A stretch of 64,000 nucleotides of DNA from a virus. Positions 2,190-58,190 of the stretch are shown piece by piece (position 1 is the stretch's first letter; every line of letters starts with the position of its first letter). The stretch lies in UHGV virus genome UHGV-0057547. One strand, written 5' to 3'. The notes under the pieces were generated by a model. It did not search any database. It saw nothing but the letters and a program-made list of their open reading frames with translations, and was not told the origin of the DNA. The translations under genes were made by a program, and so were the position numbers.

Positions 2190-2218
2190 ATTATACTATT
2201 GCTATTATTAAAAGTCAA
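2190..2218 (-). promoter_or_regulatory. consensus sigma-A-type promoter cassette (TTGACT-17-TATAAT) upstream of the MBL nuclease gene
   Basis: Minus strand: TTGACT at 2213-2218, 17-nt spacer, TATAAT at 2190-2195, followed by the conserved ATATAAGTAAATAA initial transcribed sequence. Confidence 0.6.
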
Positions 2219-2338
2219 GGAGTAAATTTTATTTCACTTCCCTTATCTTATTTGCTAAATAATTAGTTTGCAAAAAGTAATCACCTAGACTATGTGCAAA
2301 TAATATTTTTAATAACATTTAAACCTCCTAATAAAATC

Positions 2339-2551
2339 TTATTTTCTTATTGTATATCCTTTATCCTTTATATTTTCTAATTTTCTACCACAGATAGGAC
2401 AAAAGTTAATTTCTATATTTATTTCAGGTACATGAGGACTATCAAAATCTATATCTAATCTATTACCATCCATCACATCAATGTAAGCTCCTGTATCAGT
2501 AACCATATAACTATCACTGTTACATAAAAAACATTTTTCCATATTCAACAT
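2339..2551 (-). CDS. small zinc-ribbon protein (two CxxC pairs)
   Basis: CFLCNS ... CPICGRK. Preceded by the promoter cassette at 2581-2609. Confidence 0.4.
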   Translation of the reverse strand: MLNMEKCFLCNSDSYMVTDTGAYIDVMDGNRLDIDFDSPHVPEINIEINFCPICGRKLENIKDKGYTIRK

Positions 2552-2580
2552 TCCTCCTTTTATTTATCTTATTTACTTAT

Positions 2581-2609
2581 ATTATACTATTACTATTATT
2601 AAAAGTCAA
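2581..2609 (-). promoter_or_regulatory. consensus promoter cassette
   Basis: TTGACT (2604-2609), 17 nt, TATAAT (2581-2586) on the minus strand. Confidence 0.6.
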
Positions 2610-2619
2610 GGAGTAGAAA

Positions 2620-3018
2620 TTAATCTACTCCTAATTCTGCAATATTTGTATTAAAATTTTCATTTAAGTATTCACGCAAAATATGCCTATGGCAAAAATC
2701 AGTAGACTTTTCATAGCATAATAGCACAATTTCCGTATCTGTAATTCCTTCATAATCATATAAGTCTTCAAGTATTTGCTCTAAGTCTAACTCTTTTAAT
2801 TTATCAGTATACGCATTTATAAAATCTTCTTGTGACATTTTGTTGTTCTTTAGTTTAAAAACATTGTCACTAGATGGAGCTAATAATTTATATTCCATAT
2901 AATACTCTTCTCTATCTAAGAACCATTTAGGCAAACTGGTTGAAATTAATACAGGCATATATCTATTCTTTTCTTCTTTTGGCAACCTAGAAAATTTCGC
3001 ATAATAACTAGTCTTCAT
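2620..3018 (-). CDS. DUF488-family protein
   Basis: C-terminal signature IVLLCYEKSTDFCHRHILREYL, typical of DUF488 (LLC.E....CHR..L). Confidence 0.5.
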   Translation of the reverse strand: MKTSYYAKFSRLPKEEKNRYMPVLISTSLPKWFLDREEYYMEYKLLAPSSDNVFKLKNNKMSQEDFINAYTDKLKELDLEQILEDLYDYEGITDTEIVLLCYEKSTDFCHRHILREYLNENFNTNIAELGVD

Positions 3019-3031
3019 AAAATTCCTCCTT

Positions 3032-4564
3032 TTATTTATTTAATTTTCTATATTCATATTCTTCTTTATTTAATTCTTCTATTTCTTCTTCATTAAGTAA
3101 ATGATATTCATCACACCATATTTCAAACTCTCCATTTTGTACCCACTTTGTTTTAATTATTGTATTTCCGTCTTTATCTGTTGTTTCAACTTCTTTTTTT
3201 TCTTTTTTTGCCTTTTGGAACATATGATATACATTAATTACACTAAATGCTTTAAACGGTTGTGCTTCATAAAATCCTTCACCAACTTTTACCTCCATAG
3301 TTTTTCCAGTGCTTATATTAAAAATCCATGCTTTTTTATTCTTAAATTTAGTTACAACGTCAATAACAATACAAGTTGATGAATCATAATCTTCAAAATA
3401 ATAATTACATTCTCCAGTCATTTCAAGATTAATTTTAACTTTATCTATTGATGGCATTTCGCTATCTTCTATGTTCGACATTAATTCATTACATAATTCT
3501 AATGCTTTTTCTACTTTATATTGTTTATATTTATCTTCTTTACTCTTTTCAGTTGCATATTTTTCTATTATTTCTTTAGGGTATGGTAAATTAATTTTAT
3601 TAAATGATACTTCACCTTTTTTACTTTTTATTTTTTTACTTATTATATTTTCATATAACTTTATTATATCTAATAATTTTTGAGATTTACCAAATTCCTT
3701 GAAGAAATCTATTGATATCAGTATATTGAGTTGTCTTGAGTTTATAGATGTTTTATCATTTAAATCAATAAGTAAATCCATAAAACTATCATATTTATTA
3801 TCTTTTAACATATATAATTCTTGTGATACTTGTTCGTTCATATATTTTATACTAGCCATACCTTTATATATAGAGTTACTTTCTTTATCCATAAAATATT
3901 CAGCTTTAGAATATCTAAATTTAGGAGGTAATAATTTTATATCAAAATAGCTTAATTCTTTTATTAGTCTATTTGTTCTAGTTGAATCATCGGAATAAAT
4001 AGATAGGGCAACTGTATAATACTCAAGAGGATAATGTGATTTTAAAAATGCACCATATAGACTATCATAAGCATAAGAAAGTGAATGTGAAGCATTGAAT
4101 GAATATTTTGAAGCATCATTAACTACTTGCCATGTTTCTTCAAAACCATCTATTGAACCAACTTTATCTATCCAACCTTTTTTTAATTTTTCTTCTAGTT
4201 CTATTAATTCTTTTTCTTTAAATTTTTTCTTTGATATTTTTTTTATAATTCCATATGTTTCAGGTTCAGGAATACCTAACCATATTAAATATTTCATAAT
4301 AGATTCTTGATACATTAAATAATGATAACTATCTTCTAATAAATCATCTAATTCTTTTACGCCTGTTGTATATGGTTTCCTTTCTATAAAATTATCTAAT
4401 AAAGAAGCAAATCCAGGTCTAATAGATGCAACAAAAGCACTCATTTCAGCTACACTAGAAATTTTATATCTTGATGCTAAATTAGTTGCAAAATCTGAAT
4501 CAGATTGATTTATTGTGCAAGTTATTTTATCTTCATATATTTTAAATGTTTTTTCATCTAACAT
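3032..4564 (-). CDS. dnaE: DNA polymerase III alpha (DnaE-like), downstream exon. The true exon probably starts upstream of the annotated Met, near 4610
   Basis: SAFVASIRPGFASLLDNFIERK matches the DnaE ALYRPGPM...IRRK region. The frame stays open upstream of the Met back to about 4612. Confidence 0.75.
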   Translation of the reverse strand: MLDEKTFKIYEDKITCTINQSDSDFATNLASRYKISSVAEMSAFVASIRPGFASLLDNFIERKPYTTGVKELDDLLEDSYHYLMYQESIMKYLIWLGIPEPETYGIIKKISKKKFKEKELIELEEKLKKGWIDKVGSIDGFEETWQVVNDASKYSFNASHSLSYAYDSLYGAFLKSHYPLEYYTVALSIYSDDSTRTNRLIKELSYFDIKLLPPKFRYSKAEYFMDKESNSIYKGMASIKYMNEQVSQELYMLKDNKYDSFMDLLIDLNDKTSINSRQLNILISIDFFKEFGKSQKLLDIIKLYENIISKKIKSKKGEVSFNKINLPYPKEIIEKYATEKSKEDKYKQYKVEKALELCNELMSNIEDSEMPSIDKVKINLEMTGECNYYFEDYDSSTCIVIDVVTKFKNKKAWIFNISTGKTMEVKVGEGFYEAQPFKAFSVINVYHMFQKAKKEKKEVETTDKDGNTIIKTKWVQNGEFEIWCDEYHLLNEEEIEELNKEEYEYRKLNK

Positions 4565-4985
4565 TTTTTCTAATTCTTTAATAGTTGGTATTTTAATATT
4601 AGCTAATTCACAAGTTTTTCTTATTAAAGTCCAAACGGTAACTGCAAGATACGTTAATACCGTTCCTTTCGGAATACTTTAACACCCATTTAAGGGTCGG
4701 ACTAGACTATACCTTTATCTTCGACATTACTCGTTAAGATATGCCTATTATAGTCGTTGAAGGTTTCCCATCTTAAAGGGACTTCCCTGCTGATTATCCA
4801 TTCATTCACCCTTAGCACTCTCACAAGGCTTTTATTTCAGCTTAGGCAATCCTTATAATTTTTTCTGCTTTCGCAACCATCAAGTTTAATGTTACCATTT
4901 ACTTTGTGGTTTATAAGGCTTTAGGAACTCCCAGCAATTTAAGGCATCATAATCTACATAATTTCTTATATAGACGACTATTAAA
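4565..4985 (-). ncRNA. group I self-splicing intron interrupting dnaE (no internal ORF)
   Basis: About 420-nt non-coding, GC-enriched insert between two in-order DnaE halves. Minus-sense contains AAGGUAUAGUCUAGUCC (P7 3' strand / P9.0-like, cf. canonical AAGAUAUAGUCC) and CGACUAUAAUAGGC (candidate P7 5' strand GACUA). Confidence 0.6.
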
Positions 4986-6668
4986 TTAATCATTCTTTAA
5001 ATATTTATAAACATCACAATTATAACCATCTAAATTACAACATATTCCTTCTTTAGTTTTTATTAAACCAATTTCTTCTGAAACATTTTTATCATATAGT
5101 AACATTGAACAAGGTGATTCTGATATACTTTCCACTACTCCCTTAAATACTTTTGAATCTTTTATTATTTTTCCCCAATATTCATCGTTTTCATATTGCT
5201 CTAAATTTTTAGCTATTTCATCGTATTTACTAACATGCATATCATTTGCTTTACACCATAATCTAAAAGCAGATGAATCTTGTAAAGGTTTATATGATAA
5301 AATCCAAGCACAATTTTCTTCGCCTAATAAATCTTTAGTTGCTTGTATAAAAACTGAACGGTCTTCTGTATTTAAATCAACATCGGGTAATGAACGAGTA
5401 CCTAATATACGTTCTATACTCATAAATCTAGTTGGATACAATGGAACTGGTGCTGATAATCTATCTATTTCTGTTAAGCCTAATAATTTGTTTATAAGAA
5501 AACTTACAGCAGAACCTCTTCCTGTCTTAGTTAATAAGCCATTATATTTATTTATTGCTCTTTGACATATTTTATAATCTAATATAAAATAATCTTCCAT
5601 ATGTGTTTTCTCAATTATATTAAATTCATATCTTATAGCTTCTAAATATTCATTCCATCTCTCTTTAGGTATTGTATCTCTTATTTCCATCCATCTTTTA
5701 TTAATTATATCTTTTAATTCTTTATTTGGATTATTTGATATTGATGGCATTTTAATTTCTTTATCTAATATAATATTTTCACATTCATCAAAAATTAAAG
5801 TATTATTAATTGCATCTTTTATTTGCTCTTCATTTAATATATTTTGTTTATTATATCGTTCTATTATAGTTTCTACATCAGGATAATCTAATATAAAGTT
5901 TGTTTCTTCTTTATATATGATGCCTTTTGCTTTAAGAAATAATTCTCTATAAATATAATCTTGTGGATTAATATAATGTGAATCGTTACCATGAATAATA
6001 TTAATATTATATTTTTCACTTAAGCATAGAATTTTTTTATTAAGATTTTTTTGTATATCTTCATTATGGTTTTGAACTTCTAAATAAAAATTATTACCAA
6101 AATATTCTTTCATTTTTATAATCCAATCGTCTAAGCCTTCATCATTTCTTAAACGACCAGCAACACAAGCAGTTGTTATAATTGTATTATTTGGATTAAT
6201 ACTAAATAATAATTCATCATCTATTCTATTTTTATAATATACCCCATCTATATTGCTATAGGATAATATTCTATTTAAGTCTCTATATCCATCTTTATTT
6301 TTTGCTATTATAACTAAGTGATAATTAGAGTTATCTTTTTCTTTTCTATCTTTAACATAATATGCTTCTGCACCAACTACCATTTTAATACCTTTATATG
6401 ATTTATCGCATGTATCTTTATATTTACATTTTTCACAATTATGTTTTGTATATTCATTATTTTCTTGAGTAAGTTTTACACATACTTCACTACATAAAGT
6501 ATTTGCTTCATATACATTACCTTGATAACCATGTTCAGTAGTAAAATATATTGCATCTTTACCATCTAATTCAATTGCTCTAACTATATATTCTATTGGT
6601 TTAGTAACCACATCTAAACTTTTAATATTGCTATATATTTTATGTGAATGATAATTATTACATCTCAT
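4986..6668 (-). CDS. dnaE: DNA polymerase III alpha (DnaE-like), upstream exon: PHP domain plus N-terminal polymerase core
   Basis: N-terminal PHP motif YHSHKIYSNIKSLD...YFTTEHG. Size and order are consistent with DnaE when joined to 3032..4564 (about 1070 aa). Confidence 0.75.
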   Translation of the reverse strand: MRCNNYHSHKIYSNIKSLDVVTKPIEYIVRAIELDGKDAIYFTTEHGYQGNVYEANTLCSEVCVKLTQENNEYTKHNCEKCKYKDTCDKSYKGIKMVVGAEAYYVKDRKEKDNSNYHLVIIAKNKDGYRDLNRILSYSNIDGVYYKNRIDDELLFSINPNNTIITTACVAGRLRNDEGLDDWIIKMKEYFGNNFYLEVQNHNEDIQKNLNKKILCLSEKYNINIIHGNDSHYINPQDYIYRELFLKAKGIIYKEETNFILDYPDVETIIERYNKQNILNEEQIKDAINNTLIFDECENIILDKEIKMPSISNNPNKELKDIINKRWMEIRDTIPKERWNEYLEAIRYEFNIIEKTHMEDYFILDYKICQRAINKYNGLLTKTGRGSAVSFLINKLLGLTEIDRLSAPVPLYPTRFMSIERILGTRSLPDVDLNTEDRSVFIQATKDLLGEENCAWILSYKPLQDSSAFRLWCKANDMHVSKYDEIAKNLEQYENDEYWGKIIKDSKVFKGVVESISESPCSMLLYDKNVSEEIGLIKTKEGICCNLDGYNCDVYKYLKND

Positions 6669-6760
6669 ATATATTCTCCCTTCCTTCCTTTATATATATT
6701 ATACTATAAATTTTATTAAAAGTAAAATAGGATAGAGAATTTATCTCTATCCTTAATAAA

Positions 6761-9064: not shown

Positions 9065-9286
9065 CTAATCTTCGTATTCTTCTATTTCTAATAAATTAAC
9101 ATACAAAAATGTTTTATATATACTTTTATCATAACTAGATACTTCAAGTTCCACATAACTATTTGTTAAGTCAGCTATTTTTCCTATTACATTTTCATCT
9201 TTTGTTCTTACTCTTATATAATCTCCAACAATTAAAGTAATTTCTTTACCATTATTTTCTATTGTATATATTTTTCTTATTTCCAT
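9065..9286 (-). CDS. hypothetical protein
   Basis: 73-aa ORF; no recognisable motif. Confidence 0.35.
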   Translation of the reverse strand: MEIRKIYTIENNGKEITLIVGDYIRVRTKDENVIGKIADLTNSYVELEVSSYDKSIYKTFLYVNLLEIEEYED

Positions 9287-9489
9287 TATTTTATATCTTC
9301 TCCTTTTTCTAACAATGTGTTATATCCTAACAATTCATAAAATGAATAATAACTTAATTTTTTACCTGCTATTTTTGTAATTCCAAATCTATCTTTCATT
9401 CTTTTTATTAAAATACTTTTAATAATAATCAGCTCCTTTATTTACTTATTTACTTATATTATACTATTATTCTTATTAAAAATCAATCG

Positions 9490-43799: not shown

Positions 43800-43940
43800 A
43801 AAATACCTCCAATTTAAAGTCCTTAAGACTATTTATTTTTTTTATTTTGTTTTTTTATATTTATTATACTATTATTATATCATGTAGTTTATGTTATGTC
43901 AAGCATTTTTGAAAAAACTGAGAAGAAAATTTTTCTTCTC

Positions 43941-44537: not shown

Positions 44538-44650
44538 TCTTCATTCCCCCTAAAATATTTTTATTATTTATTTCTTTTATACTTATATTATATACTAGAT
44601 TTTATCTATTGTCAAGTATTTTTGTAAAAACTGAGAAGAAAAAATCTTCT

Positions 44651-45238
44651 CTATTCAACTTCAACTTCTATTTTTTTAAAAAAATCTATCATTTCTTTTT
44701 CGTATTTATTGAAAAGTCTGACTGCTTTTTTATCTGCTATTTTTTCACATTCGATATTCCTATAGTGTTCCATTTGCATCTCACCAATTAACCAAGTATT
44801 TATTTCATATTCCTTTTCACATTCAAAATATAATTTATTATATCCATGTTTATCAAGCGACCTATTTAGTGTTATCATATGCCCTATTTCATGTAATATA
44901 GAAACCATGCAATAAACTTGAAAAAAATTCATTTCATATTTTTTCATTATGTAATTGTAATTAAAACCATAATGCTTTAAATAATCCACAAAATATTCAT
45001 GCTGTCTAATTATACTTTCTCTTTCGGTATAAACATTTTCAGGAACATATAACAAACTATATCTATCAACTTTTTCTTGTCCTCCACATGCAAAAGATTT
45101 TTTTGAATATTTTTGTATGCAATAAGGTATTCCTTTTTTCAATTCTTTTTTCTCTATAAAAAAATCAAATATTGAATTCATAAAATCTTCTGTGATGTCA
45201 ATATATTTTCTTTTTATTAAATCACTTTTAAGTTTCAT
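44651..45238 (-). CDS. HEXXH metallopeptidase (ImmA/IrrE-like)
   Basis: ILHEIGHMITLN. Confidence 0.45.
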   Translation of the reverse strand: MKLKSDLIKRKYIDITEDFMNSIFDFFIEKKELKKGIPYCIQKYSKKSFACGGQEKVDRYSLLYVPENVYTERESIIRQHEYFVDYLKHYGFNYNYIMKKYEMNFFQVYCMVSILHEIGHMITLNRSLDKHGYNKLYFECEKEYEINTWLIGEMQMEHYRNIECEKIADKKAVRLFNKYEKEMIDFFKKIEVEVE

Positions 45239-45264
45239 TTTTTATTTCCCCCTTTATACTATAT

Positions 45265-45293
45265 ATTATATATTAAGTTTTATATATTGTCAA
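45265..45293 (-). promoter_or_regulatory. sigma-A-type promoter (TTGACA-17-TATAAT) for gene 44651..45238
   Basis: TTGACA 45288-45293, 17-nt spacer, TATAAT 45265-45270. Confidence 0.5.
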
Positions 45294-45302
45294 TCACTTT
45301 TG

Positions 45303-45331
45303 AAAAAAACTGAGAAGAAAAAATTCTTCTC
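45303..45331 (-). terminator. rho-independent terminator, 3' of RNA element copy 7
   Basis: Minus-sense GAGAAGAAUUUUUUCUUCUC followed by AGUUUUUUUC. Confidence 0.55.
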
Positions 45332-45384: not shown

Positions 45385-45498
45385 GTTTCAATACTTGTTA
45401 TCAAGCTTCCCTATTCAACGTATCCTCTTCCCCTCTTATGAGGTACTCAAGTTTATATGATACTCCAAGGGCGTAAATTCGGAACTGAACTTTCCTAT
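45385..45498 (-). ncRNA. conserved structured RNA element (copy 7), a stand-alone unit flanked by its own promoter (45518..45546) and terminator (45303..45331)
   Basis: AUAGGAAAGUUCAGUUCC-GAAUUUACGCCCUUGGAGUAUC...GGAUACGUUGAAUAGGGAAGCUUGAUAACAAGUAUUGAAAC. Terminator about 45 nt downstream; a second promoter then drives the next gene. Confidence 0.6.
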
Positions 45499-45517
45499 TT
45501 ATTTCTTATTTACTTAT

Positions 45518-45546
45518 ATTATACTATTTTTACTGTTGAATGTCAA
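45518..45546 (-). promoter_or_regulatory. promoter cassette driving RNA element copy 7
   Basis: TTGACA 45541-45546, 17 nt, TATAAT 45518-45523. Confidence 0.6.
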
Positions 45547-45657
45547 GTATTATTTTTAAAAACTGGGAAGAAAAATTTTCTTCCCTTGATTGTTTTCGCA
45601 CAAAAGTAGGCTACGTCAGCACAAAAGTGGGCGACCCTATATTTTATTCCAATTTAA

Positions 45658-46239: not shown

Positions 46240-47307
46240 TTATTTTTTATTATAAATATACATTTTGTAGAAATTATCCCAAATTTGATAGTATTCTTCA
46301 GAATATTGAAGTTGTCTTAATCTACTTTCTTTCATAAGTATAGCATATTCAACATTAAATCCATTTCTAGATTTTATTTTTTCATCAATAGTTTTTTTAT
46401 TTTTATTTTGTCTTTTTAGTGCCAAAGATTTTCTAATTTCATATATATCATTTTTAATTATATCCACATCAAAACCATTTAAATAGTTCTTCTTAATATA
46501 TTCTATATCTTTAGTTAGAAAAATTTGAAATGCTTCATAAGTATATTTATATCCTAATTCACAAGTCAATTCAAAACTTAATTCTTTATCAAAGTCTTTT
46601 AATTTTTGAATATTACATTTTATATTTTCCTTTCTGTTGCCATATACTAAATCATTTCTACTTGTAATACTATATTTCTCACATATTCTATTTTCAATAT
46701 CTATTACTTTTCTTAATTGTATAGAATTTGTATTAAGATACACTTCATTATTTTCTAAGTCTACTGCAATTTTCACTTTATACCATTTTATTAAATTATC
46801 TTTTTTTTCAAGTTTATTTAAAGCAGATAAAAAATTTGAATATAAGGCAGAATTTTCAACAGAGAAAAAATCTTTTTTAACTATATCTTTATCGTTTAAA
46901 ATAGGATATTGATAATTAATATTCTTTTTTTCATTTGGATAAAATATTTCTACTAGAGCCATACTAGTTAGCCAATTGTCAAATGTTTTTACACAATATG
47001 TTTCATCTTTAAAATTGCAATAACCTATAATAGAATTTAATAAAGCTTGTTTCATTAAAAAACTCATACTCTTTTCATCCTCCTTAATATCATATACTTT
47101 CCTTTTGGAACTATCAAATTCTATCCCATTGCTCCCCATAAGAGTATAATATACTCTACTTCCTATTTTATTTTTTTCCACTGCACATACTTTGGAAAGT
47201 TTATTGATTAAAGTTTTTTCTTTTTTTCTAAAATTACTATAACTGTAGTCACAAAGTTCACAAAGTTCTTTTGATGTATAAGTCCCATCTTGTAATATTA
47301 CTTCCAT
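46240..47307 (-). CDS. hypothetical protein
   Basis: 355-aa ORF; no recognisable motif. Confidence 0.4.
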   Translation of the reverse strand: MEVILQDGTYTSKELCELCDYSYSNFRKKEKTLINKLSKVCAVEKNKIGSRVYYTLMGSNGIEFDSSKRKVYDIKEDEKSMSFLMKQALLNSIIGYCNFKDETYCVKTFDNWLTSMALVEIFYPNEKKNINYQYPILNDKDIVKKDFFSVENSALYSNFLSALNKLEKKDNLIKWYKVKIAVDLENNEVYLNTNSIQLRKVIDIENRICEKYSITSRNDLVYGNRKENIKCNIQKLKDFDKELSFELTCELGYKYTYEAFQIFLTKDIEYIKKNYLNGFDVDIIKNDIYEIRKSLALKRQNKNKKTIDEKIKSRNGFNVEYAILMKESRLRQLQYSEEYYQIWDNFYKMYIYNKK

Positions 47308-47387: not shown

Positions 47388-47489
47388 ATTATTTTTATAT
47401 ATTTATATATATTATACTATAAATTTTATTAAAAGTCAATAATAAAAATAAAAAAAAGAAAGGCTATTTAAACCTTTCTTTTATATGAA

Positions 47490-48380: not shown

Positions 48381-48983
48381 TTAATATGTTATTAAATCCA
48401 ATTCTTCCATTTCGTTTAATAAGTCATAATCGCATACATCTTTATAATAGCCATTTTCATATTTAAATAAATTTATCTCATCGCTTAAAGCATTTACTTC
48501 TACATAATATATTTCATCATTTAATTCAACTTCTACTGATTTAGAACATTCTAAGAATAATTCTAAAAATTCTTCTTCATAATTAAATTTCAAATACATC
48601 CATTCAGAATATCCAACTCTTACATCTCCACGTCCACAATGAACTCTAAATCCAACTATATATTCATCTTCTTTAGTATCATAATAAGTTCTAAAATCAA
48701 TATGATTAATTAATGGTGCATTCCAGTTATAAGTATTATCGGCAGTTATTTCTTCTATCCAACCTTCATCAAGTCCTATTTCTAAATAATCATCAATATA
48801 ATATTCATAATCAGTTTCTTCTTCTTTATCCCATATAATACCATTAATAACTTCATAAGGTTCTAAAACATTTAATATATCCATTATATCAACTGTCAAT
48901 TCATTTTCTTTTATATTATAAGTTCCTTCTAAGCATTTTTTTACATCTTCTATTTTTGTTCTTCCAAACATATAAACCTCCAA
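48381..48983 (-). CDS. hypothetical acidic protein
   Basis: 200-aa ORF; no recognisable motif. Confidence 0.4.
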   Translation of the reverse strand: MEVYMFGRTKIEDVKKCLEGTYNIKENELTVDIMDILNVLEPYEVINGIIWDKEEETDYEYYIDDYLEIGLDEGWIEEITADNTYNWNAPLINHIDFRTYYDTKEDEYIVGFRVHCGRGDVRVGYSEWMYLKFNYEEEFLELFLECSKSVEVELNDEIYYVEVNALSDEINLFKYENGYYKDVCDYDLLNEMEELDLITY

Positions 48984-49220
48984 GTTTAAAGTCCTAAAGA
49001 CTATTTATTTTTTTATTTATACTTATATTATATAGTATAATTTATATCATGTCAACTATTTTTAAAAAAATATTTTAAATTTTTTATTTTGTTTTTATTG
49101 ATTGTTAATAACTGAGAACATTAAATATCCTCTTTATACTATATATTATATATTAGTTTATATGATATGTCAATATAATATTAAAAAAATATAGAGAAAA
49201 AATCTCTATATTTTTTATAT

Positions 49221-50051
49221 CTATGCCAATTGTTGTAAATCAGTTTTATTTATTTCTATTTTTAAAATTTTACTTAATGCCATTATGCCTTTAGGAGTGA
49301 TTTTAAGATTACTATAATTATGACCTTCTTTCTCTCCAACTATTACCTTAAACCACGTTTTATCAACTTCAGAATACGGTAACCAACTTTTGCCTTGCTT
49401 GAATATAATTCTATTTTCATTTAATGTTTTATTAAATTGTTGTGCTGATTTAAATTTAAATAATTTAGCAACTTGAGTTGATGTATATAATCCATTGCTA
49501 TTCATAAAATCATCAAAATAATTTACTTTAGGTTTATCTTTTTCTATTTTTTCTAATAATGGTTTCTTTTCTAGTTTTGCTAATTCTTTTGATGCTACTA
49601 TTCCCTCTTGTCCACCATTATAGATATCTAGTAATAATTTTGCTTTTAATTGTTCATCAGAATTTATTACTTCTCTCATTGCAAAATATTCTCTTCTTAA
49701 TTGTTTTCTTATTTCTTTTGCTTTTTCAGTTTTCATGAATCCAACCAATAACATATAACCTTGTTCAGATAATAAATAGCAATTTTTTTGTCTATTATTA
49801 GTTATAAATCCTAAAACCTTAGCAAGGTTTAAGGATTTTTCATCAGACATCAAATCCAATAAATCAATTCCTATTTCAAATTCATCTATATGTTCATTTA
49901 TTAATGTATTAACTTTATCCAATCTAGTATCATGTATTTCAGATATTGTTTTAGCTAAGATAGCTTTTTGACCTTCACCAAATCCACTTTCTACAACAGG
50001 TATTTCTTTACCCATAAAATCTTGTGTGCCATTAACTTTCAATTCATTCAT
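49221..50051 (-). CDS. antirepressor-like protein (paralogous N-terminus with 53650..54756)
   Basis: NGTQDFMGKEIPVVESGFGEGQKAILAKTISEIHD vs NGTQDFMGVKIPVIEGGFGEGKRCLTDKVISEIHN. Confidence 0.4.
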   Translation of the reverse strand: MNELKVNGTQDFMGKEIPVVESGFGEGQKAILAKTISEIHDTRLDKVNTLINEHIDEFEIGIDLLDLMSDEKSLNLAKVLGFITNNRQKNCYLLSEQGYMLLVGFMKTEKAKEIRKQLRREYFAMREVINSDEQLKAKLLLDIYNGGQEGIVASKELAKLEKKPLLEKIEKDKPKVNYFDDFMNSNGLYTSTQVAKLFKFKSAQQFNKTLNENRIIFKQGKSWLPYSEVDKTWFKVIVGEKEGHNYSNLKITPKGIMALSKILKIEINKTDLQQLA

Positions 50052-50167
50052 ATTACCAGCTCCTTTTATTCTTATTTGATTATATTATACTTATGCCTTT
50101 ATTAAAAGTCAATAAAAACCTAAAAATAAATTTTAGGTTTCATAACTGAGGATTAATTAAAACCCTC

Positions 50168-50842: not shown

Positions 50843-50952
50843 GTTTCAGTGCTCATTAGTAAGCTTCCCTGTTCAACGTGTTCTCTTTCGTTTTAAACTA
50901 CTCAAGTTTTTTACAACACTCCAAGGGCGTAAATTCGGAACTGAACTTTCCT
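50843..50952 (-). ncRNA. conserved structured RNA element (copy 8)
   Basis: Promoter TTGACATTATATATAAGCTAGTATATAAT immediately upstream. Element ends GCACUGAAAC about 30 nt before the next ATG. Confidence 0.55.
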
Positions 50953-51045
50953 ATTTATATTATATACTAGCTTATATATAATGTCAACTGAAAACTTAAA
51001 AATAAATTTTAAATTTTCTCACTGAGGATATTATTAAATATCCTC

Positions 51046-51303
51046 TTAATACCATTTTCCGTATCTACTTTCATATTCATCTAGTGTTATTATACTAAAA
51101 TCAATCTCTGAATCTACCTCTGATATTTCAACTATATAAGGTTTTCTATTGATAAAAACTTTTGTATCTGAAACATATTTTATATTGTCTAAAACCTTTT
51201 TTAAATTTTGTTTATTAAGTTTATCTAGCATATTATCATATATACCTAATGTATACCCTTCACTTTTTATTTTATTTATTATTATTTCCTTATTTGTTTT
51301 CAT
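51046..51303 (-). CDS. hypothetical protein
   Basis: 85-aa ORF, cassette region. Confidence 0.4.
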   Translation of the reverse strand: MKTNKEIIINKIKSEGYTLGIYDNMLDKLNKQNLKKVLDNIKYVSDTKVFINRKPYIVEISEVDSEIDFSIITLDEYESRYGKWY

Positions 51304-51416
51304 TTTTAAAATCCTCCTAATTCATTTTTATACTATAATTGTATCATAGTATTTATCTATTGTCAAGTAAAAACTTAAAAATAATTTTTATTTTTCTTAA
51401 CTTTCATAACTGAGGA

Positions 51417-51842
51417 TTAATTAAAATCCTCCAAAGATATTAGTATTTGTTTAAATACATTATCATTGCTTAAATCTTTTATTATATTTTTTAAATCATT
51501 ATTTTTATTACTGTCTCTTATTATTAATTCTATGTCTTCTTCTATGTAATCTATGCTGTCATAGACATATTCTTCATAGTCACATCCCATATAGCTTACT
51601 AGTTCTCCATTATCATTATAATGAAATAAATCTTCATTAGAATTAAAATTACCATTTTCAATTTTATCTGCTATTTCTAGTGGCTCTAAACCTTCCATTA
51701 ATTCGTTGAATTCTTCCATATCATGAACTATTAACCAATCTAAATAAAAACTATTATAACTTATAACTTCAACAAGTTCTAATAAATCAGTGTAATTACT
51801 TCTATCCTCTAAATTTTTTCTTAAAGATTCAAATTTATTCAT
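51417..51842 (-). CDS. hypothetical acidic protein
   Basis: 141-aa ORF, cassette region. Confidence 0.4.
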   Translation of the reverse strand: MNKFESLRKNLEDRSNYTDLLELVEVISYNSFYLDWLIVHDMEEFNELMEGLEPLEIADKIENGNFNSNEDLFHYNDNGELVSYMGCDYEEYVYDSIDYIEEDIELIIRDSNKNNDLKNIIKDLSNDNVFKQILISLEDFN

Positions 51843-51979
51843 AATAACAACTCCCTTATTTATTTTTTTTATTTATCTTTATACTATGTATTATATACTA
51901 GTAATTATATATTGTCAAGTGAAAATCTAAATTTTATTTTTAAATTTTCATAACTGAGAATACAGAATTGTATTCTCTT

Positions 51980-52309
51980 TTAGATATTTAAGAATTCATT
52001 ATCTTCTAACATTGTTACTTTATAATCATAATATTTTTTTATAATGTTGATATCGTTTTTATCATATGCTATTATATAAATATTACCTTCTACTTCAGCA
52101 ACTTCTCCAATAATAAAATTATTAAATCGTTCCAATGTTAAATCTTCCAATACAGAATCATCTTCTTCAAATAATTTTTCTTTTTCTTTTTCATCTTTTG
52201 CTAATAAATCAACTAAACATTCAAAATGTAAACTATTTTCTATAAGTTTTCCATCAGCTATAACAAAAGCATTTTTTCTATATAATTCATAATCATATTC
52301 TATTTTCAT
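51980..52309 (-). CDS. hypothetical protein
   Basis: 109-aa ORF, cassette region. Confidence 0.4.
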   Translation of the reverse strand: MKIEYDYELYRKNAFVIADGKLIENSLHFECLVDLLAKDEKEKEKLFEEDDSVLEDLTLERFNNFIIGEVAEVEGNIYIIAYDKNDINIIKKYYDYKVTMLEDNEFLNI

Positions 52310-52621
52310 AATAATAACTCCCTTTAATTTATTTTTTATTTATCTTTATACTATGTATTATATATTAGTGATTATATATTGTCAAGCATTTAAATAAAAA
52401 AATCCATATATTTTTACATATATGGATTTTAGATATTTTATTTAAAATAATAATTCATATTATTTACAATTAAGTTAGTAACATATAGTAAACCTTTTTT
52501 AGTCATACAGATACCCTTAGAATTATTATTTATATTTTCATATATAAATAAATTTTTCTTTTTATTTTTATCTGTTAATCTTTCACTTGTTTTGAATTGC
52601 TTTTGTTTTATCATAAATTTA

Positions 52622-53383
52622 TTAAATAATGTTATTCCTATTTTTTTTATGATAGAATTCATATTTATTAAATAAATCTACGTATTCTTTTTTACCCATA
52701 ATTACATTATCATCTAAACTATTTAAATAAGTTTTAAACTTATCTAAATTAGTTATATTAATTACTGTCATATCATTATTTTTAGTAGTTAAAGTTTTAG
52801 AACTTTTATTTAAATCATCAATCTTATCAGATAAACTTTCTATCATTTTTAATAATTCATTTATTGTTTTATTTTGTTCTTCTATTTTATCAAGTAGTTC
52901 CGTATTGTTTACTGTTAGTGTTTCATTATTAGAATTTCCATTTAAAATTATGTCAAGCATTTTACTTCTTATTTCTTGTGCTACTTTGCTATCTCTTAAT
53001 AACATTGCCATATTTAAAAAACATCTTTTATTTACCAATGTATTACTTCTATTATTAAATTTTCTATTATCTGATATAAAATAACCTTTATAGTTATGAA
53101 GGGAAATATTGTCCCCTCCTAAAAATTCTCTTGTTTCCTTACCTTTTAATATTAATAAACCATTTTTAATTAATTCTCTTTTATTGTTTTGAACTAATTT
53201 TTTAATACATTCATAATCAACTTCAAAATATTTAGCCACTCTGTCAAGTGTTTCATATTCCATATTATTAATTGTAGTTATAGTTTTATATTTATTCATT
53301 ATATCTAAACTTTTATTATTATTTAATATCTCTTGTCTTAATTCCTCTTTTTCTAAAATATCATTTAATACCATTATTACCAA
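52622..53383 (-). CDS. hypothetical protein
   Basis: 253-aa ORF; no recognisable motif. Confidence 0.4.
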   Translation of the reverse strand: MVIMVLNDILEKEELRQEILNNNKSLDIMNKYKTITTINNMEYETLDRVAKYFEVDYECIKKLVQNNKRELIKNGLLILKGKETREFLGGDNISLHNYKGYFISDNRKFNNRSNTLVNKRCFLNMAMLLRDSKVAQEIRSKMLDIILNGNSNNETLTVNNTELLDKIEEQNKTINELLKMIESLSDKIDDLNKSSKTLTTKNNDMTVINITNLDKFKTYLNSLDDNVIMGKKEYVDLFNKYEFYHKKNRNNII

Positions 53384-53649
53384 CTCCTTTTATATTTTTT
53401 ACTTATATTATACTTATACATTTATTAAAAGTCAATGAATACTCATAAAAATATTTAATTTTCCATAAATATTTTATAGAAATATAAACTCAAATCTAAA
53501 TTTAATTTTTGTCAAATTTTGTCGATTAATACCAAATAAAAAAACCCAAAGCTAAATTTAATTTTAACTTTGGGATAACTGAGGATTAATATAATCCTCT
53601 ATAAATAATACTTGTAATTAATTTTACTGTTTATTATATTACCAACTCC

Positions 53650-54756
53650 CTATTGTAATAATTCTAACAATTTATTTAAACCATCATCTGTTATTTTACT
53701 GTATTTATAATATCTATACATATAATTATTATCTCTAGCATATTGTGTTTCAATTTCATTTTTATCTAACCAATTTATTTTTTTAAGTTTATTCATTAAG
53801 TATTCTAAACTAATGTCATTGTTAAGGTTATTATTTAATATTTTTAATGCTTGTCTATATGTGTATCCTTCATTTGTTTTTCTTCTCTTTTTTTCTTCTG
53901 TCGTTCTATTAATTATTTTAGATATTTGTTGCATTAATTTTAATATGTCATTATCTATGATATAATCTACCATTTTAGGATTCCATGTATAAACGTTTGT
54001 TATGCTTGCTCTACATAAACCGTTTTTAATAAATTCATTTTCAAATTTATCATTATGTATAAATCTAGTTTTTTTATTTATTAATTTATTTTCACCATAT
54101 CCTTTTATTTCTAATGCTTCAAAGAAAATTTTTGTAAACAATTTCTTTGAAGGTAATTGTTTTATTAAATCTATTGTTGATAAATAATTTTCTATTCTTT
54201 CATTTTCTAATTCTATTTTATCAATTTCCTTTTGTTTTTCAGCCCCATATTCTTCTTTTAGTTCACCGAATAATTTTGTATTTAAAACTCTATCTTCTTC
54301 TGTATTTGAAAATATAGATTTATAAAATGTTTCAGCTAATATTTTTTCTTTTGAATTTACAATTTCTCTCATAGTAAAATAATCATCAACTAATTTATCA
54401 TGTATTTCCCAGGCTAAATCTGTATCCATTATTTTTATAAGTTTTGCATAACCTCTTTCTGATAATAAGTAAATATTTTTAGCTTGTGTTATAGATTGTT
54501 TAGCGTAACCCATTTTTGTCAACGTATCGTTGTCGTCGATACGTTTAAGATTTATAAAATCTACACCTTCTTTAAATCTTTTGATGTTTTTATTAAGTGT
54601 TTCTCTAACATGAATCATTTTCATATTATGTATTTCAGATATAACTTTATCAGTTAAACATCTTTTTCCTTCACCAAAACCACCTTCTATCACTGGTATT
54701 TTAACTCCCATAAAATCTTGTGTGCCATTAATTATGATATTATTCATATTTACCAA
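53650..54756 (-). CDS. antirepressor-like protein (paralog of 49221..50051 at the N-terminus)
   Basis: Shared N-terminal domain; see 49221..50051. Confidence 0.4.
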   Translation of the reverse strand: MVNMNNIIINGTQDFMGVKIPVIEGGFGEGKRCLTDKVISEIHNMKMIHVRETLNKNIKRFKEGVDFINLKRIDDNDTLTKMGYAKQSITQAKNIYLLSERGYAKLIKIMDTDLAWEIHDKLVDDYFTMREIVNSKEKILAETFYKSIFSNTEEDRVLNTKLFGELKEEYGAEKQKEIDKIELENERIENYLSTIDLIKQLPSKKLFTKIFFEALEIKGYGENKLINKKTRFIHNDKFENEFIKNGLCRASITNVYTWNPKMVDYIIDNDILKLMQQISKIINRTTEEKKRRKTNEGYTYRQALKILNNNLNNDISLEYLMNKLKKINWLDKNEIETQYARDNNYMYRYYKYSKITDDGLNKLLELLQ

Positions 54757-55142
54757 CTCCTTTATATATTTGATTATATTATACTTAACATATTATTAAA
54801 AGTCAATAAATACTCATAAATATATTTAATTTTCCATAAAAATATATATCTCTGAGCCATTTAAATGGATTTTAAGCTTGTTATAACTACTTAATGGATA
54901 AACTATTCATTAAGTTATAAACTCATATTTAAATTTAATTCTTGTCAATTCTGTTTAAAAATAGGCATAAAAAAAATCCTCTACCATAATAGTAGAGGAT
55001 TAATTAGTTTCTAATAATAAAGTCCCTTCTGATTTTATTTTGTTACTTCCATAAGTATCTCTTATAGAACTCATATTTTTTCCTTATTTATTTCTTTAAA
55101 TACTTCTTCATTTTCCTTTCTATCAGGGTGAAACTTCATAGC

Positions 55143-55254
55143 GTTTCAATGCTTGTAACAAGCTTCCCTATTCAACGTGTTCTTTTTCACTTTATAAGCT
55201 ACTCAAGTTTTTGTAACACTCCCAGGGCGTAAATTCGGAACTGAACTTTCCTAC
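55143..55254 (-). ncRNA. conserved structured RNA element (copy 9)
   Basis: Promoter 55270-55320 upstream. GUAGGAAAGUUCAGUUCC-GAAUUUACGCCCUGGGAGUG...GAACACGUUGAAUAGGGAAGCUUGUUACAAGCAUUGAAACGC. Followed only by tiny ORFs (21 and 23 aa). Confidence 0.55.
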
Positions 55255-55385
55255 ATGTTATTTTTAATTTTTTATTTTATTTACCTATATTATACTGCTA
55301 TTATTATTAAAAGTCAATAAATATTTTCATTTTTTTATTTAATTTTCACAAAACTTTTTAACTTTCAGCAATAACTGAGGATTAA

Positions 55386-56145: not shown

Positions 56146-56274
56146 AATATAAAACCCTCCTAAAATTTTATTTATTAACTATATTATAGCATTTTAGCTA
56201 TATAAAGTCAATAAAATATTTAATTCTCATGAAAGTTTTTAACTTCCATGTAACAGAGGATTATAATTAATCCT

Positions 56275-56514
56275 CTATAAATAGTATTTGTAATTAATTA
56301 TGCTATTCACATAGCAACTTTCAGCAACTTTATATGCATTTAAGCTTCTGCTTATATGCACTCCAAAAGTTCTATTTGCTATTTTAACTGCTTTTGTTAG
56401 ACTTATTAATTCTTGTTCAACTGCATAGTTTAAACAAGGATATAATGCAATAATTGCACGTCTATTGCTTTCAGCTCTAACTATTTTTCCATTTACAACG
56501 AATTTTTTATTCAT
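56275..56514 (-). CDS. hypothetical protein
   Basis: 79-aa ORF; AGGAGGG RBS upstream. Confidence 0.4.
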   Translation of the reverse strand: MNKKFVVNGKIVRAESNRRAIIALYPCLNYAVEQELISLTKAVKIANRTFGVHISRSLNAYKVAESCYVNSIINYKYYL

Positions 56515-56917
56515 ATAAGACCCTCCTAAATATTTCCATTTTTTTATTTAATTTTCATGAAAGTTTTTAGCTTTCATGTTACAGAGGATTTTAATTAATC
56601 CTCTACAAATATTTCTAAGATATCATCTTTAAAATCCCACGCTTCAAGATGCTTATAGCTTACATTATGTTCTTTTGCTTCTTCTCCAATGTCTAAATCA
56701 GATATTCCTTTTATGGTATATCTATTTACTAAATCTTTAAATCCTTCAGTTACTTTAAATTCATATCTTTTCATAATACAAAACCCTCCTAAATATTTTC
56801 ATTTTTTTATTTAATTTTCATTTATATTATATACCAGTTTTTATATAAAGTCAATATATAATATAAAAAAATCCAAAGTTAGGTTTAAATTTAACTTTGG
56901 AATAACTGAAAAAGGAA

Positions 56918-57211
56918 CTAATAAGTTAAAATTCCTTTTTCTTTATAACTTGCCATTTTAAAACCTAAGTTTTCATTTAATGTTTCTATATTGTCTAATA
57001 TGAAAATCTTATCGTCATGATTCAAATATGATATATTATATTCTTTTTCATTGTTTACAGTCCATGATAAAATTATATTTTGTTCTTCCATAGCATTTAA
57101 TAGAATATTAATATTGTTATAATTCTTTTCCTCTGCATAGAAAACTTTTAAGTCTATTTTGTTTATTTCAATTTCTTTTTTCATATATAAAACCCTCCTA
57201 AATATTTTCAT
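56918..57211 (-). CDS. hypothetical protein
   Basis: 97-aa ORF, cassette region. Confidence 0.4.
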   Translation of the reverse strand: MKIFRRVLYMKKEIEINKIDLKVFYAEEKNYNNINILLNAMEEQNIILSWTVNNEKEYNISYLNHDDKIFILDNIETLNENLGFKMASYKEKGILTY

Positions 57212-57267
57212 TTTTTTAATTAATTCTCATGAAAGTATTTAACTTTCACGATTACAGAGGATTATAA

Positions 57268-57654
57268 TTAATCCTCTATTATTTCTTCATATTCTGCAAT
57301 TGTAACTTCATTGTATATTTCATTTACCATATACTCAAAAGCTAACCAACTTAAATTATTTGCATCTACTTCAAAATCAGGACTTAAATTTTCTTTTGTG
57401 CTATTGTATATTTCAAATATTTCTTCCATATGTTTAATGAAGAAACATTTTGTTTCATTAAAGTATATTAATTCTCCTATCATACCACTTGCACACCCAT
57501 ATTGAATTACTTCCTCTAAAAATGTTATTGGATTTTCATAATCATCAATATGATTAAGAATTATATCAATAACATTATCCTTTAATTCGCTTTCTCCATA
57601 CATATTTTCTAAAAAAGTATTTAATTTCATAAAAACCCTCCTAAATATTTTCAT
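57268..57654 (-). CDS. hypothetical protein (paralog of 59621..59986)
   Basis: KLNTFLENMYGESELKDNVIDIILNHIDDYENP vs MLENLYGESELKDNVIDILLDHIEDYEEP. Stop codon sits in a conserved hairpin loop. Confidence 0.45.
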   Translation of the reverse strand: MKIFRRVFMKLNTFLENMYGESELKDNVIDIILNHIDDYENPITFLEEVIQYGCASGMIGELIYFNETKCFFIKHMEEIFEIYNSTKENLSPDFEVDANNLSWLAFEYMVNEIYNEVTIAEYEEIIED

Positions 57655-57709
57655 TTTTTTAATTAATTCTCATGAAAGTATTTAACTTTCACGATTACAG
57701 AGGATTAAT

Positions 57710-58072
57710 TTAATCCTCTAAGCTATACGCCATACACATGTTAAAATCTTTATCCTTATATTGTTCTGAAAAATCAATAACTATGAATTCGCCATTATTG
57801 CTTTTATGTTTATACCATTTTGTACCAGTTAATCCATTTAGCCATGATTTTTTACCTTTGACATCACCTTCTAACATTTCAAATACTACTTCATTATTAT
57901 TATATCTAATACCTTTTCTCTTGCTTATATCTTTTGTTAATTTTACATATTTTTCATTTTCCATATTTAACAATTCATGAGCTTTTTCTAAGCTAACATA
58001 TCCAGTTAAAACTAATTTAGATATACTTTCTCTTAATTCTATCATACCTTGTTTTTTAGTTATTTTTTTCAT
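57710..58072 (-). CDS. hypothetical protein
   Basis: 120-aa ORF, cassette region. Confidence 0.4.
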   Translation of the reverse strand: MKKITKKQGMIELRESISKLVLTGYVSLEKAHELLNMENEKYVKLTKDISKRKGIRYNNNEVVFEMLEGDVKGKKSWLNGLTGTKWYKHKSNNGEFIVIDFSEQYKDKDFNMCMAYSLED

Positions 58073-58190
58073 AATATAAACCCTCCTAAAATTTTATTTA
58101 TTAACTATATTATAGTATAACCACTATATAAAGTCAATAAATATTTTAATTATTACAAAAGTTTTTAACTTTTGTTACTGAAGAAGGATT

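Follow-up and report, generated by a model that had tools for sequence, protein, structure and literature searches.

The 64,000-nt stretch of virus genome UHGV-0057547 analysed here (the window) carries on its minus strand about 50 copies of a conserved promoter cassette. Hexamers, spacing and position support well that the repeat is a family of strong promoters read by the host sigma-A (sigma-70-type) RNA polymerase, with a TTGACw -35 hexamer, a spacer of exactly 17 nt and a TATAAT -10 hexamer. As the window also encodes two homologues of MrpR/SroF-type repressors, we read the cassette as such a host promoter that is probably fused to the operator of a repressor of this type. Judged by its sequence, the window is one arm (~60 kb) of an uncultured phage of about 150-200 kb from a low-GC Gram-positive host, related to SPbeta, c-st and phiCD211; this is indicated by relatives of 147-204 kb and by the binning of sister lineages in 'Bacilli bacterium' metagenome-assembled genomes (MAGs).

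Anatomy and conservation of the promoter cassette

The 14-mer TTGACTTTTAATAA, allowing up to two mismatches, occurs 41 times in the window compared to 7.9 ± 2.9 times in shuffled sequences, and 35 of the 41 occurrences lie on the minus strand. To avoid circularity, we used a search for the hexamers only (TTGAC-N18-TATAAT, at most one mismatch). With a 17-nt spacer, this yielded 53 matches on the minus strand, 50 of them intergenic and three intragenic; spacers of 15, 16, 18 or 19 nt, or the plus strand, gave one to three matches. A position weight matrix (PWM) built from 50 sites retrieved 51 minus-strand and no plus-strand sites at 15 bits or more, and a strict 34-base pattern occurred 12 times in the window, with 0.00 occurrences expected. 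In statistical terms, the recurrence of the motif is overwhelming. A preceding sequence-only reading had counted more than 40 copies between positions 2190 and 58140. The hexamer search places 45 cassettes in this range, which bears out that count; about 31 of them fit the consensus given there, the remainder being variants; five more are located at 58.5-61.1 kb.

The conserved stretch extends from the -35 hexamer to about +8 and thus over about 43 bp. At the -35 position, TTGAC is invariant in 40 of the 50 sites, with an orthologue divergence of 1/456. Beyond the needs of sigma-A, the cassettes conserve TTTAATAA in the spacer, a G at -13 and, spanning discriminator and start site, ATAAGTAAATAAG; the blocks TTTAATAA and (A)G-TATAAT-ATAAGTAAATAAG recur at about 30 sites, and related variants are present at about 20. 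An extended -10 element (TGnTATAAT) is absent from the cassettes, in which the conserved G at -13 abuts TATAAT. The region upstream is A/T-rich. Downstream of 44 of the 50 cassettes follow a Shine-Dalgarno (SD) sequence and a start codon, 17-167 nt from the predicted +1; in 38 of these cases, the distance is 17-68 nt and the SD always of the GGAG type. The remaining six have an RNA gene downstream. The hexamers with their exact spacing, the strand specificity, the intergenic position and these downstream signals all agree with the earlier description of a textbook sigma-A promoter. The expected start point for host RNA polymerase is the G or A of ATAAGTAAATAAG, 5-7 nt past TATAAT. The conserved segment from +1 to +20 that had been described in addition did not stand up, because only about 8 nt of the conserved block are transcribed and the rest is discriminator.

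Four variants of the cassette occur in spatial clusters. Class A, TTGACT TTTAATAA N7 AG TATAAT ATAAGTAAATAAG, accounts for most of the region from 2 to 43 kb and for a few sites up to 55 kb. Class B, TTGACA ATAtATAA .. TA TATAAT ATAtAGTATAAAG, is found at 43.9-52.4 kb, and class C, TTGACT TTATATAG .. TATAAT ATAGTTAATAAATAAAATTTTAGGAGGG, at 56-59 kb before unrelated small ORFans. Class D, TTGACA TTGAATAAAAGA .. TACAAT, stands at the head of the arm, three times in tandem (60.9-61.1 kb). An origin of the class C likeness in tandem paralogous genes was rejected, as there is just one related pair among 16 small proteins. This pair comprises the open reading frames (ORFs) 57268-57630 and 59621-59986 with 75% identity; the other small early ORFans are unrelated despite near-identical promoter, leader and SD sequences.

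Selection was assessed on 76 distinct orthologous sequences of 30 promoters, each with 110 bp or more to the left and right of the cassette; as these sequences are related, all p-values are indicative only. Compared to about 5% in the flanks, divergence between orthologues was 0.2% in the -35 hexamer, 1.6% in the spacer block next to it and 1.75% in the -10 hexamer, which amounts to a combined odds ratio of 0.24 for the three constrained blocks (Fisher p = 7e-14). The central 7 nt of the spacer diverged by 10.7%, in excess of the flanks (Fisher p = 5e-7). By this measure, purifying selection between orthologues acts on the spacer block TTTAATAA. A pattern of constrained blocks on either side of a fast-evolving centre speaks against recent copying as a simple cause, and such a centre would be expected if copies exchange occasionally.

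Among the relatives of 147-198 kb, each genome contains 9-12 strict cassettes. Twenty-four of 25 strict-cassette loci match the window, all in its first ~51 kb (the locus in L006 is unmatched), so the proposal that the genome as a whole is built from promoter modules has to be restricted to one arm. In the equivalent 50-kb arm, phiCD211 has three to four consensus promoters and c-st about five of its own type. The density in the window, far above that of these nearest cultured relatives, is therefore lineage-specific and bears out the earlier reading in this respect. Three sister lineages, with an MrpR identity of 53-64%, have retained such a density (14 sites per 20.9 kb, 15 per 20 kb and nine per 14 kb). 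They also keep the hexamers and their spacing; the flanking blocks differ, L038 and L043 having TTGACA TTTGATAA .. wTG TATAAT ATAAGTAAATAAGAT and L044 having TTGACw TAtrATAt .. TA TATAAT TAAAGTATATtAA. The strict 34-nt pattern was absent from 185,579 bacterial and archaeal species genomes and is thus phage-specific; on the same grounds, the cassette was rejected as a host consensus or widespread element.

Candidate repressors and competing explanations

The two candidate repressor genes are located on the minus strand at 32523-33386 and 33407-34297. The product of the former is a homologue of the MrpR/SroF family of repressors with a tyrosine-recombinase fold and a candidate trans-factor for the non-hexamer blocks; the latter encodes an MrpR-like paralogue that is 34% identical to it. 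Both match the Pfam family MrpR_N_CB, with 31.9 bits (cut-off 27) and 26.9 bits, and homologues of the MrpR-like proteins combine MrpR_N_CB with MrpR_C_cat. When an AlphaFold2 model with a predicted local distance difference test score (pLDDT) of 80 was used in a Foldseek search, SPbeta MrpR (8a0a), phi3T SroF-DNA (9rd5) and YopR (8bj6) were the top matches and outranked the true recombinases XerA and Cre. Arg-I aligns to Lys. A tblastn search against phages returned one weak match and did not reach SPbeta, and phmmer against the PDB sequences was marginal; the assignment to the MrpR family is thus taken from Pfam and the fold search.

MrpR occupies and represses 10 promoter regions of SPbeta through their SPBRE box (PMC10516654), and SroF, bound as a monomer, reads 24/26 bp at multiple distant sites in the genome (bioRxiv 10.1101/2025.11.27.690993). 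A monomer reading its site in this manner would need a long asymmetric conserved sequence around each promoter. In the cassette, TTTAATAA, the G at -13 and ATAAGTAAATAAG would be the most likely site for the phage's own MrpR/SroF-type repressor or repressors encoded at 32.5-34.3 kb, and a single repressor protein might silence all ~50 units at once. The earlier suggestion of a regulatory target in the conserved transcribed segment is plausible when applied to the non-hexamer bases, and the operator reading would give it a concrete form. Sequence statistics bear out the promoter anatomy, its strand and intergenic specificity, the terminators, selection on the spacer block and the fold of the repressor homologue; initiation, its timing and repressor binding at the cassettes are what we infer from these features. 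The second MrpR-like gene is preceded in sister lineages by a different promoter of its own (TAGACA .. TGGTG TATAAT), which lies inside the end of the upstream paralogue (L038:9940-9968, L043:9060-9088, L042:1414-1442) and could be a maintenance promoter.

Several observations weigh against a repressor operator in the cassette and against the biology that goes with it. In the window, the same promoter position (33387-33450) is degenerate, with CAAACA and no -10, and the MrpR genes lie behind a cassette promoter themselves. Divergence of the cassette tracks that of MrpR only loosely, since a lineage with 57% identity has nearly the same cassette and one with 53% does not. No convincing similarity of the cassette to the phi3T box CAGTAATTTTATTTTTATTCTTAATG was found, as would be expected if the specificity has diverged. 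The discriminator and initial transcribed sequence (ITS) diverge only marginally less than the flanks (3.6% vs 5%, Fisher p = 0.05). The MAG binning of the sister lineages is the sole hint of the host, and a weak one, and a temperate lifestyle is suggested by the integrase and antirepressor-like genes as its only basis.

The cassette could also be an optimised host promoter and nothing else, its non-hexamer bases being kept for promoter strength or mRNA performance without any phage DNA-binding protein. An AT-rich curved spacer, the discriminator, easy promoter escape and an A-rich leader would then explain the extended conservation. Such an optimum is consistent with the hexamers and the 17-nt spacing being the most constrained features, with an ITS block that is barely more conserved than the flanks, and with the occurrence of the ATAAGTAAATAAGAT block in two lineages whose MrpR proteins are only 57-58% identical; near-consensus early promoters are also common in large phages (PMC2839356). 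However, the positions from -29 to -22 are not read by sigma-A, yet the divergence of TTTAATAA is three-fold below that of the flanks. Entire block sets swap between lineages (TTGACT/TTTAATAA/AG; TTGACA/TTTGATAA/TG; TAtrATAt/TA/TAAAGTATAT) while the hexamers remain constant, and a pattern found in none of 185,579 bacterial species genomes is no general host optimum. We regard this account as possible but rather unlikely.

Alternatively, the extended identity may be maintained mainly by recombination or gene conversion, the cassettes acting as portable linkers that shuffle gene modules in the manner of the promoter-early stem-loops (PeSLs) of T4-type phages (Arbiol et al. 2010, PMC2839356; Comeau et al. 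2014, PMC4122927), which provide the precedent. Out of 126 internal homology breakpoints, 32 lie within 60 bp of a cassette centre, a three-fold enrichment over the 8.7% expected by area. At 37.4 and 30.9 kb, relatives hold alternative contents behind the same cassette, and the variable segments begin right after the ITS; at 17.7 kb, the variable segment begins inside the cassette. The spacer centre diverges twice as fast as the neutral flanks, and the terminator hairpins are repeated families as well. The module shuffling that the sequence-only reading had envisaged thereby gains some support from breakpoints and allelic replacements enriched at cassettes, although the breakpoint counts are not independent and intergenic DNA is prone to insertions and deletions anyway. 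Conversion tracts would, moreover, homogenise the central 7 nt too, which are the least conserved, and at a well-resolved insertion (24187-24999) the borders are formed by duplicated coding sequence and not by cassettes. As the principal explanation, recombination therefore appears doubtful, and we think it quite unlikely; it can coexist with the promoter-operator reading instead of replacing it. The insertion itself measures 813 bp, contains a 256-aa ORF (24215-24985) and is absent from four relatives; on either side of it lies a copy of a ~50-bp stretch from the 3' end of the aminopeptidase gene, duplicated in direct orientation.

Three sigma-70-like proteins are encoded in the arm, at 36682-37257 (region 4; behind the cassette ending at 37472), 38133-38918 (regions 2 and 4; behind that ending at 38979) and 39017-39763 (region 2; behind that ending at 39827). 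One of these could read the motif in place of host sigma-A, which would make the cassettes a middle or late class, and the blocks are indeed specific to phage lineages. But the motif is exactly the housekeeping consensus (TTGACA/T, 17 nt, TATAAT), cassettes precede the sigma genes themselves so that something else must fire first, and the arm carries replication and takeover-type genes rather than virion genes. Nothing points to the phage's own sigma factors as readers, which would be a very unlikely arrangement; given the consensus and the position of the sigma genes, host sigma-A is the economical reader. The phage sigma factors made from cassette units may in turn switch on other promoters elsewhere.

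The cassettes are, finally, hardly likely to be the ends of a miniature mobile element derived from IS607/TnpB: six or seven of them are directly followed by RAGATH-18 scaffolds of TnpB guide RNAs (reRNAs), the promoter-reRNA unit is polymorphic for presence or absence, and paralogous homology over 187 bp links the units at 37.4 and 41.4 kb, but 43 of the 50 cassettes have no reRNA, L038, L043 and the close relative L037 show the same cassette density without RAGATH-18 within 20 kb, and alleles with an intact gene behind the same cassette indicate that the cassette predates the reRNAs. An origin from IS607/reRNA element ends was rejected because sister lineages have cassettes without RAGATH-18.

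Terminators, transcription units and guide RNAs along the arm

Terminator-like hairpins followed by a T-run were detected at 40 sites on both strands, compared to about 5.4 expected, with 23 distinct sites on the minus strand. Twenty-five promoters are located directly behind such a hairpin and T-run; the distance from its end to the -35 is 1-17 nt, except at one promoter, where it is 48 nt. Several of the hairpins form repeated families. All five terminators named by the sequence-only reading were recovered by the scan (13130-13106, 43100-43080, 45331-45312, 34441-34424 and 39864-39845). Its statement that many genes are followed by terminators holds in the sense that many cassettes are preceded by intrinsic terminators, but a recognisable upstream terminator is present at only about half of the promoters.

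The terminator-promoter units would divide the arm into short transcription units. With 50 promoters for about 90 minus-strand genes, these comprise one to seven genes (mean 1.8): 21 units have one gene, eight have two, eleven have three, two have four, one has five and one has seven, and six of the 50 promoters are in tandem or drive only an RNA. Among 56 gaps of at least 60 bp, 41 are occupied by one or more of the 50 cassettes and another one by a truncated cassette at 17.7 kb; the PWM found no weaker copies in the remaining ones. Together, the promoter-to-gene ratio and the cassette-free gaps suggest short operons, and the notion of one promoter per gene cannot be upheld. The units carry replication genes, the three phage sigma factors, many small ORFans, the TnpB gene and six to seven guide RNAs.

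The individual cassettes and terminators, all on the minus strand, are given here by their lower and upper coordinates. From the left end, class A cassettes are found at 2175-2218 (TTGACT-17-TATAAT; before ORF 1339-2040) and 2566-2609 (ORF 2339-2551), the latter with a terminator-like hairpin at 2609-2632 that abuts its -35. The class A cassette at 6683-6726 (TTTACT) has a hairpin and T-run at 6729-6753 upstream and serves the 5' exon of dnaE (ORF 4986-6668). Further class A sites follow at 9443-9486 (TTGATT; ORF 9065-9286) and 10901-10944 (ORF 10365-10892; terminator 10946-10977). The cassette at 12879-12922 drives an FtsH-like ORF (10995-12854) and stands in tandem with 13005-13048, both of class A; a terminator is located at 13106-13130. 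At 14112-14155 (class A; ORF 13572-14096), a terminator-like hairpin (14152-14181) overlaps the -35, and at 16351-16394 a class A cassette with terminator 16397-16423 precedes ORF 15756-16322 and a DnaB-like helicase.

The next class A cassette, at 19221-19264 (terminator 19282-19303), heads the seven-gene unit. It is followed by those at 22092-22135 (ORF 20646-22067), behind a bidirectional A-tract/hairpin/T-tract terminator at 22149-22181; 23254-23297 (ORF 22788-23207), with a terminator at 23312-23340 that was found in a relaxed scan and has 2 GC pairs; and 24089-24132 (ORF 23391-24068). A bidirectional terminator at 27520-27550 lies upstream of the cassette at 27462-27505, which drives the five-gene unit with the M18 aminopeptidase, and two more class A sites are located at 28638-28681 (AAA_24 ORF 27558-28616) and 30296-30339 (ORF 29257-30264). 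DNA ligase (31140-32450) is preceded at 32464-32507 by a cassette with a TTTGATAA spacer and a divergent ITS, and the two MrpR-like genes by a class A cassette at 34372-34415 with terminator 34424-34441. The tyrosine integrase (34452-35393) has a class B-like cassette (TACAAT) at 35401-35444, and ORF 35448-35609 one at 35633-35676 behind terminator 35692-35715.

The three sigma-like ORFs introduced above are served by cassettes at 37429-37472 (class A; terminator 37486-37514, relaxed scan; a solo RAGATH-18 RNA at 37317-37379 comes first), 38936-38979 (class B-like) and 39784-39827 (class A; terminator 39845-39864). The class A cassette of TnpB, 43018-43061, follows a terminator of the GAGAAGAAAA..TTCTTCTC type at 43080-43100. 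Terminators of the same family recur at 43480-43499, 43920-43940, 44633-44651 and 45312-45331, upstream of the cassettes at 43418-43461 (ORF 43100-43390), 43859-43902 (class B; ORF 43515-43799), 44572-44615 (class B; SprT-like ORF 43941-44537) and 45250-45293 (class B; ORF 44651-45238), respectively. At 47396-47439, a class A cassette with terminator 47454-47482 precedes ORF 46240-47307. Two class B cassettes at 49012-49055 (ORF 48381-48983) and 49130-49173 are in tandem, with a terminator at 49184-49216 (relaxed scan), and the class A cassette at 50069-50112, behind terminator 50116-50140 (relaxed scan), drives an antirepressor-like ORF (ORF6N/KilAC; 49221-50051).

Class B continues with 51323-51366 (ORF 51046-51303), 51875-51918 (ORF 51417-51842) and 52342-52385 (ORF 51980-52309; terminator 52398-52431, relaxed scan), followed by class A cassettes at 53392-53435 (ORF 52622-53383) and 54763-54806 (ORF6N ORF 53650-54756). 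The class C sites, each before one or more small ORFans, are 56168-56211 (TTGACT TTATATAG .. ATAGTTAATAAATAA), 56811-56854 (terminator 56872-56901, relaxed scan), 58094-58137 (several ORFans) and, beyond the range covered by the sequence-only reading, 58545-58588 (TATTAT) and 58954-58997 (TACAAT). At the head of the arm, the three class D promoters (60881-61123; at 60924, 61014 and 61123) are arranged in repeats of ~90-109 bp, and a fourth tandem promoter at ~61230 has a 16-nt spacer. Within 60440-61250, each of the four is preceded by AAAAGTTTTAAAA tracts, and behind them a ~450-nt leader of higher G+C content with several hairpins extends to the first ORF (60104-60436); no Rfam family reached the gathering threshold in this leader region.

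The window has a G+C content of 24-25%. Up to ~60.4 kb, the minus strand holds nearly all ORFs; the GC skew changes sign beyond 60 kb, and 16% of the arm is non-coding. The larger proteins include a DnaE-type DNA polymerase III alpha, whose gene is interrupted by a group I intron, the DnaB-like helicase, the ATP-dependent ligase, a DHH phosphoesterase, a Beta-CASP nuclease, the AAA_24 protein, the tyrosine integrase, the two MrpR-like and three sigma-70-like proteins, antirepressor-like proteins and the IS607-type TnpB. A full-length FtsH-like AAA+/M41 protease (10995-12854), a GH13 alpha-amylase (19595-20686) and the M18 aminopeptidase (24989-26605) are unusual cargo for a phage early region, and each resides in a cassette-driven unit. 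The intron (4684-4998, minus strand; Rfam RF00028, 61.9 bits vs a gathering threshold of 50, E = 2.8e-15) was missed by the whole-window gathering search. It corresponds to a 421-bp gap within dnaE and splits the gene into ORFs 4986-6668 and 3032-4564; the phiCD211 gene is uninterrupted. No tRNA genes were found in a tRNA scan.

The arm starts at a repeat-rich region at 61-64 kb. Positions 61200-64000 are dense in repeats and largely non-coding, with TGTATACA-type iterons in three clusters at spacings of 14/21/28/42 bp, palindromes (TATGAGTGACTGTTCATA boxes and TAGTTAACATGTTAACTA) and two small plus-strand ORFs whose 5' regions are duplicated (61530-61582 and 63094-63146). By these features, it is probably an origin, partition or control region.

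A megablast search of 20 kb against 50,697 phage records gave a 60-bp methylase match as the sole hit, indicating that no cultured phage is close at the DNA level. By identity of polymerase III alpha, C. difficile phiCD211/phiCDIF1296T (64%) comes closest among cultured phages, followed by C. botulinum c-st (55%), and SPbeta-type YorF/MrpR genes are present. Several metagenomes hold near-identical contigs and contigs of 87-100% identity, 147-204 kb in length, and the assembly collection has the helicase indexed in 96 blocks.

RAGATH-18 (Rfam RF03064), the scaffold of guide RNAs of IS607-type TnpB (PMC11061315), matched eight times in the window, with 57-69 bits compared to a threshold of 44.9. 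The only TnpB gene (41833-43014, behind the cassette ending at 43061) encodes an IS607-type protein in which the RuvC residues D, E and D are conserved in an alignment to 8iaz_A (E = 4e-68). One scaffold, at 41694-41759, lies directly 3' of tnpB; the other seven are solo. Six of these are located 25-58 nt downstream of a cassette start site: 30983-31047 (cassette 31079-31122, class A), 37317-37379, 41362-41424 (41474-41517, class A), 45407-45471 (45503-45546, behind terminator 45565-45585), 50865-50927 (50944-50987, class B) and 55164-55227 (55274-55317, class A). The seventh, 17556-17621, is behind the truncated cassette (17673-17716), which consists of half the spacer, the -10 and the ITS, lacks a -35 and is absent from L017, L004 and L009. 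All eight share an extended scaffold that ends in TGAAAC and is followed by a distinct ~20-nt sequence, the putative guide.

In relatives, intact small genes are found behind the same cassettes, and the putative guides of the window are retained downstream parts of those genes; one relative holds the scaffold at another position in the same gene. Three allele states were observed behind one cassette, namely an intact ORF of ~85 aa, a scaffold replacing all but the last ~27 nt (as in the window) and a scaffold replacing the first ~100 nt (window 37293-37422 vs L018:2961-3330 and L011:2420-2860; 30950-31080 vs L005:2800-3100). In a comparison of window 17496-17712 with L017, L004 and L009, cassette and reRNA are missing from these three relatives, and a fourth has an extra gene. 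Within the 20 kb surrounding the MrpR genes, relatives carry between 0 and 4 RAGATH-18 copies and the sister lineages none; the reRNAs are therefore recent arrivals that make use of cassettes already in place. The published AGGAG (AGGAG/GAGGG) target-adjacent motif was not found beside the guide-matching sites in intact alleles; the five bases before these sites are TACTG, AATTG, GATTG, GGTTA and TAATA, mostly of the form xxTTG or xxCTG.

From its layout, the set of solo reRNAs with one TnpB looks like a dispersed multi-guide TnpB system in a phage, and no description of such an arrangement was found in the literature searched. The cassette might then be a dual-purpose 'address label', that is, a host promoter with an MrpR-SroF operator that also provides the promoter and left homology arm for dispersed TnpB guides, used in RNA-guided homing or allele exclusion between co-infecting phages. 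We put this forward as speculation that is unlikely to be right in full. If it were, the system would be a repeat-free, promoter-per-guide counterpart of a CRISPR array. The cassette-driven solo guides in any case suggest that phages use TnpB with several independently transcribed guides.

Relation to known phage systems

The cassettes resemble the PeSLs of T4-type phages in several respects. Both combine a strong sigma-70-type early promoter and an AT-rich upstream region with a terminator stem-loop, the latter present for about half of the cassettes. Both number about 50 per genome, are conserved over most of the intergenic space and stand mostly before small ORFans. PeSLs are associated with insertions, deletions and replacements between close relatives, and the cassettes may be so as well, with three allelic examples next to breakpoint counts that are not independent. 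In contrast to the PeSLs, the hairpin is always upstream of the -35 and never inside the promoter, core replication genes are headed by cassettes in addition to hyperplastic regions, and the conserved spacer and start-site blocks are under selection. As the cassettes, known here from sequence alone, belong to an SPbeta/c-st/phiCD211-like phage and not to a T4-like myovirus, they would be PeSL-like in working, not by descent.

With the SPBRE/Phi3TRE-MrpR system, the window shares phage-encoded MrpR-family proteins, of which it has two, and a long asymmetric motif in early-gene promoter regions spread over tens of kilobases; a repressor gene with its own differing promoter has its counterpart in the sister lineages. 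The copy number differs, with about 50 cassettes in 60 kb compared to 10 peaks in 134 kb by chromatin affinity precipitation sequencing (ChAP-seq). The conserved bases of the cassette are interleaved with the -35 and -10 hexamers, whereas SPBRE is a separate box, and the phi3T box has no sequence similarity to the cassette; binding of the repressor to the cassette is a prediction. Unlike in SPbeta-family phages, no arbitrium genes were seen in the window. If the operator reading is correct, this kind of recombinase-fold repressor system would be extended from ~10 SPbeta sites to ~50 promoter-embedded sites, and three lineage-specific natural variants would be at hand from which to decipher the recognition code.

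Large virulent phages also have clusters in which host-type promoters close to consensus are combined with terminators and give rise to many short early transcripts for small takeover genes, as in the host-takeover module of SPO1 and among the T5 and T7 early promoters. These arrays are shorter, with about a dozen units, and no identical cassette of ~43 bp that includes spacer and start site is known from them. The stoperators of cluster A mycobacteriophages are comparable in that one repressor (L5 gp71) serves 20-30 asymmetric, orientation-specific intergenic sites; they are, however, 13-bp sites that block elongation and are mostly not promoters, and their repressor is an unrelated helix-turn-helix protein.

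For low-GC Firmicutes, the cassette offers a ready-made, very strong and probably repressible set of promoter and terminator, and for a widespread group of uncultured ~200-kb phages it provides a clear transcription map. Taken together, the cassette family is a familiar kind of phage element, an early promoter with terminator that is close to the PeSLs of T4 and to SPBRE of SPbeta, to which a repressor operator would be a plausible extra layer and the driving of TnpB guides, as it appears from the sequence, an unusual use.

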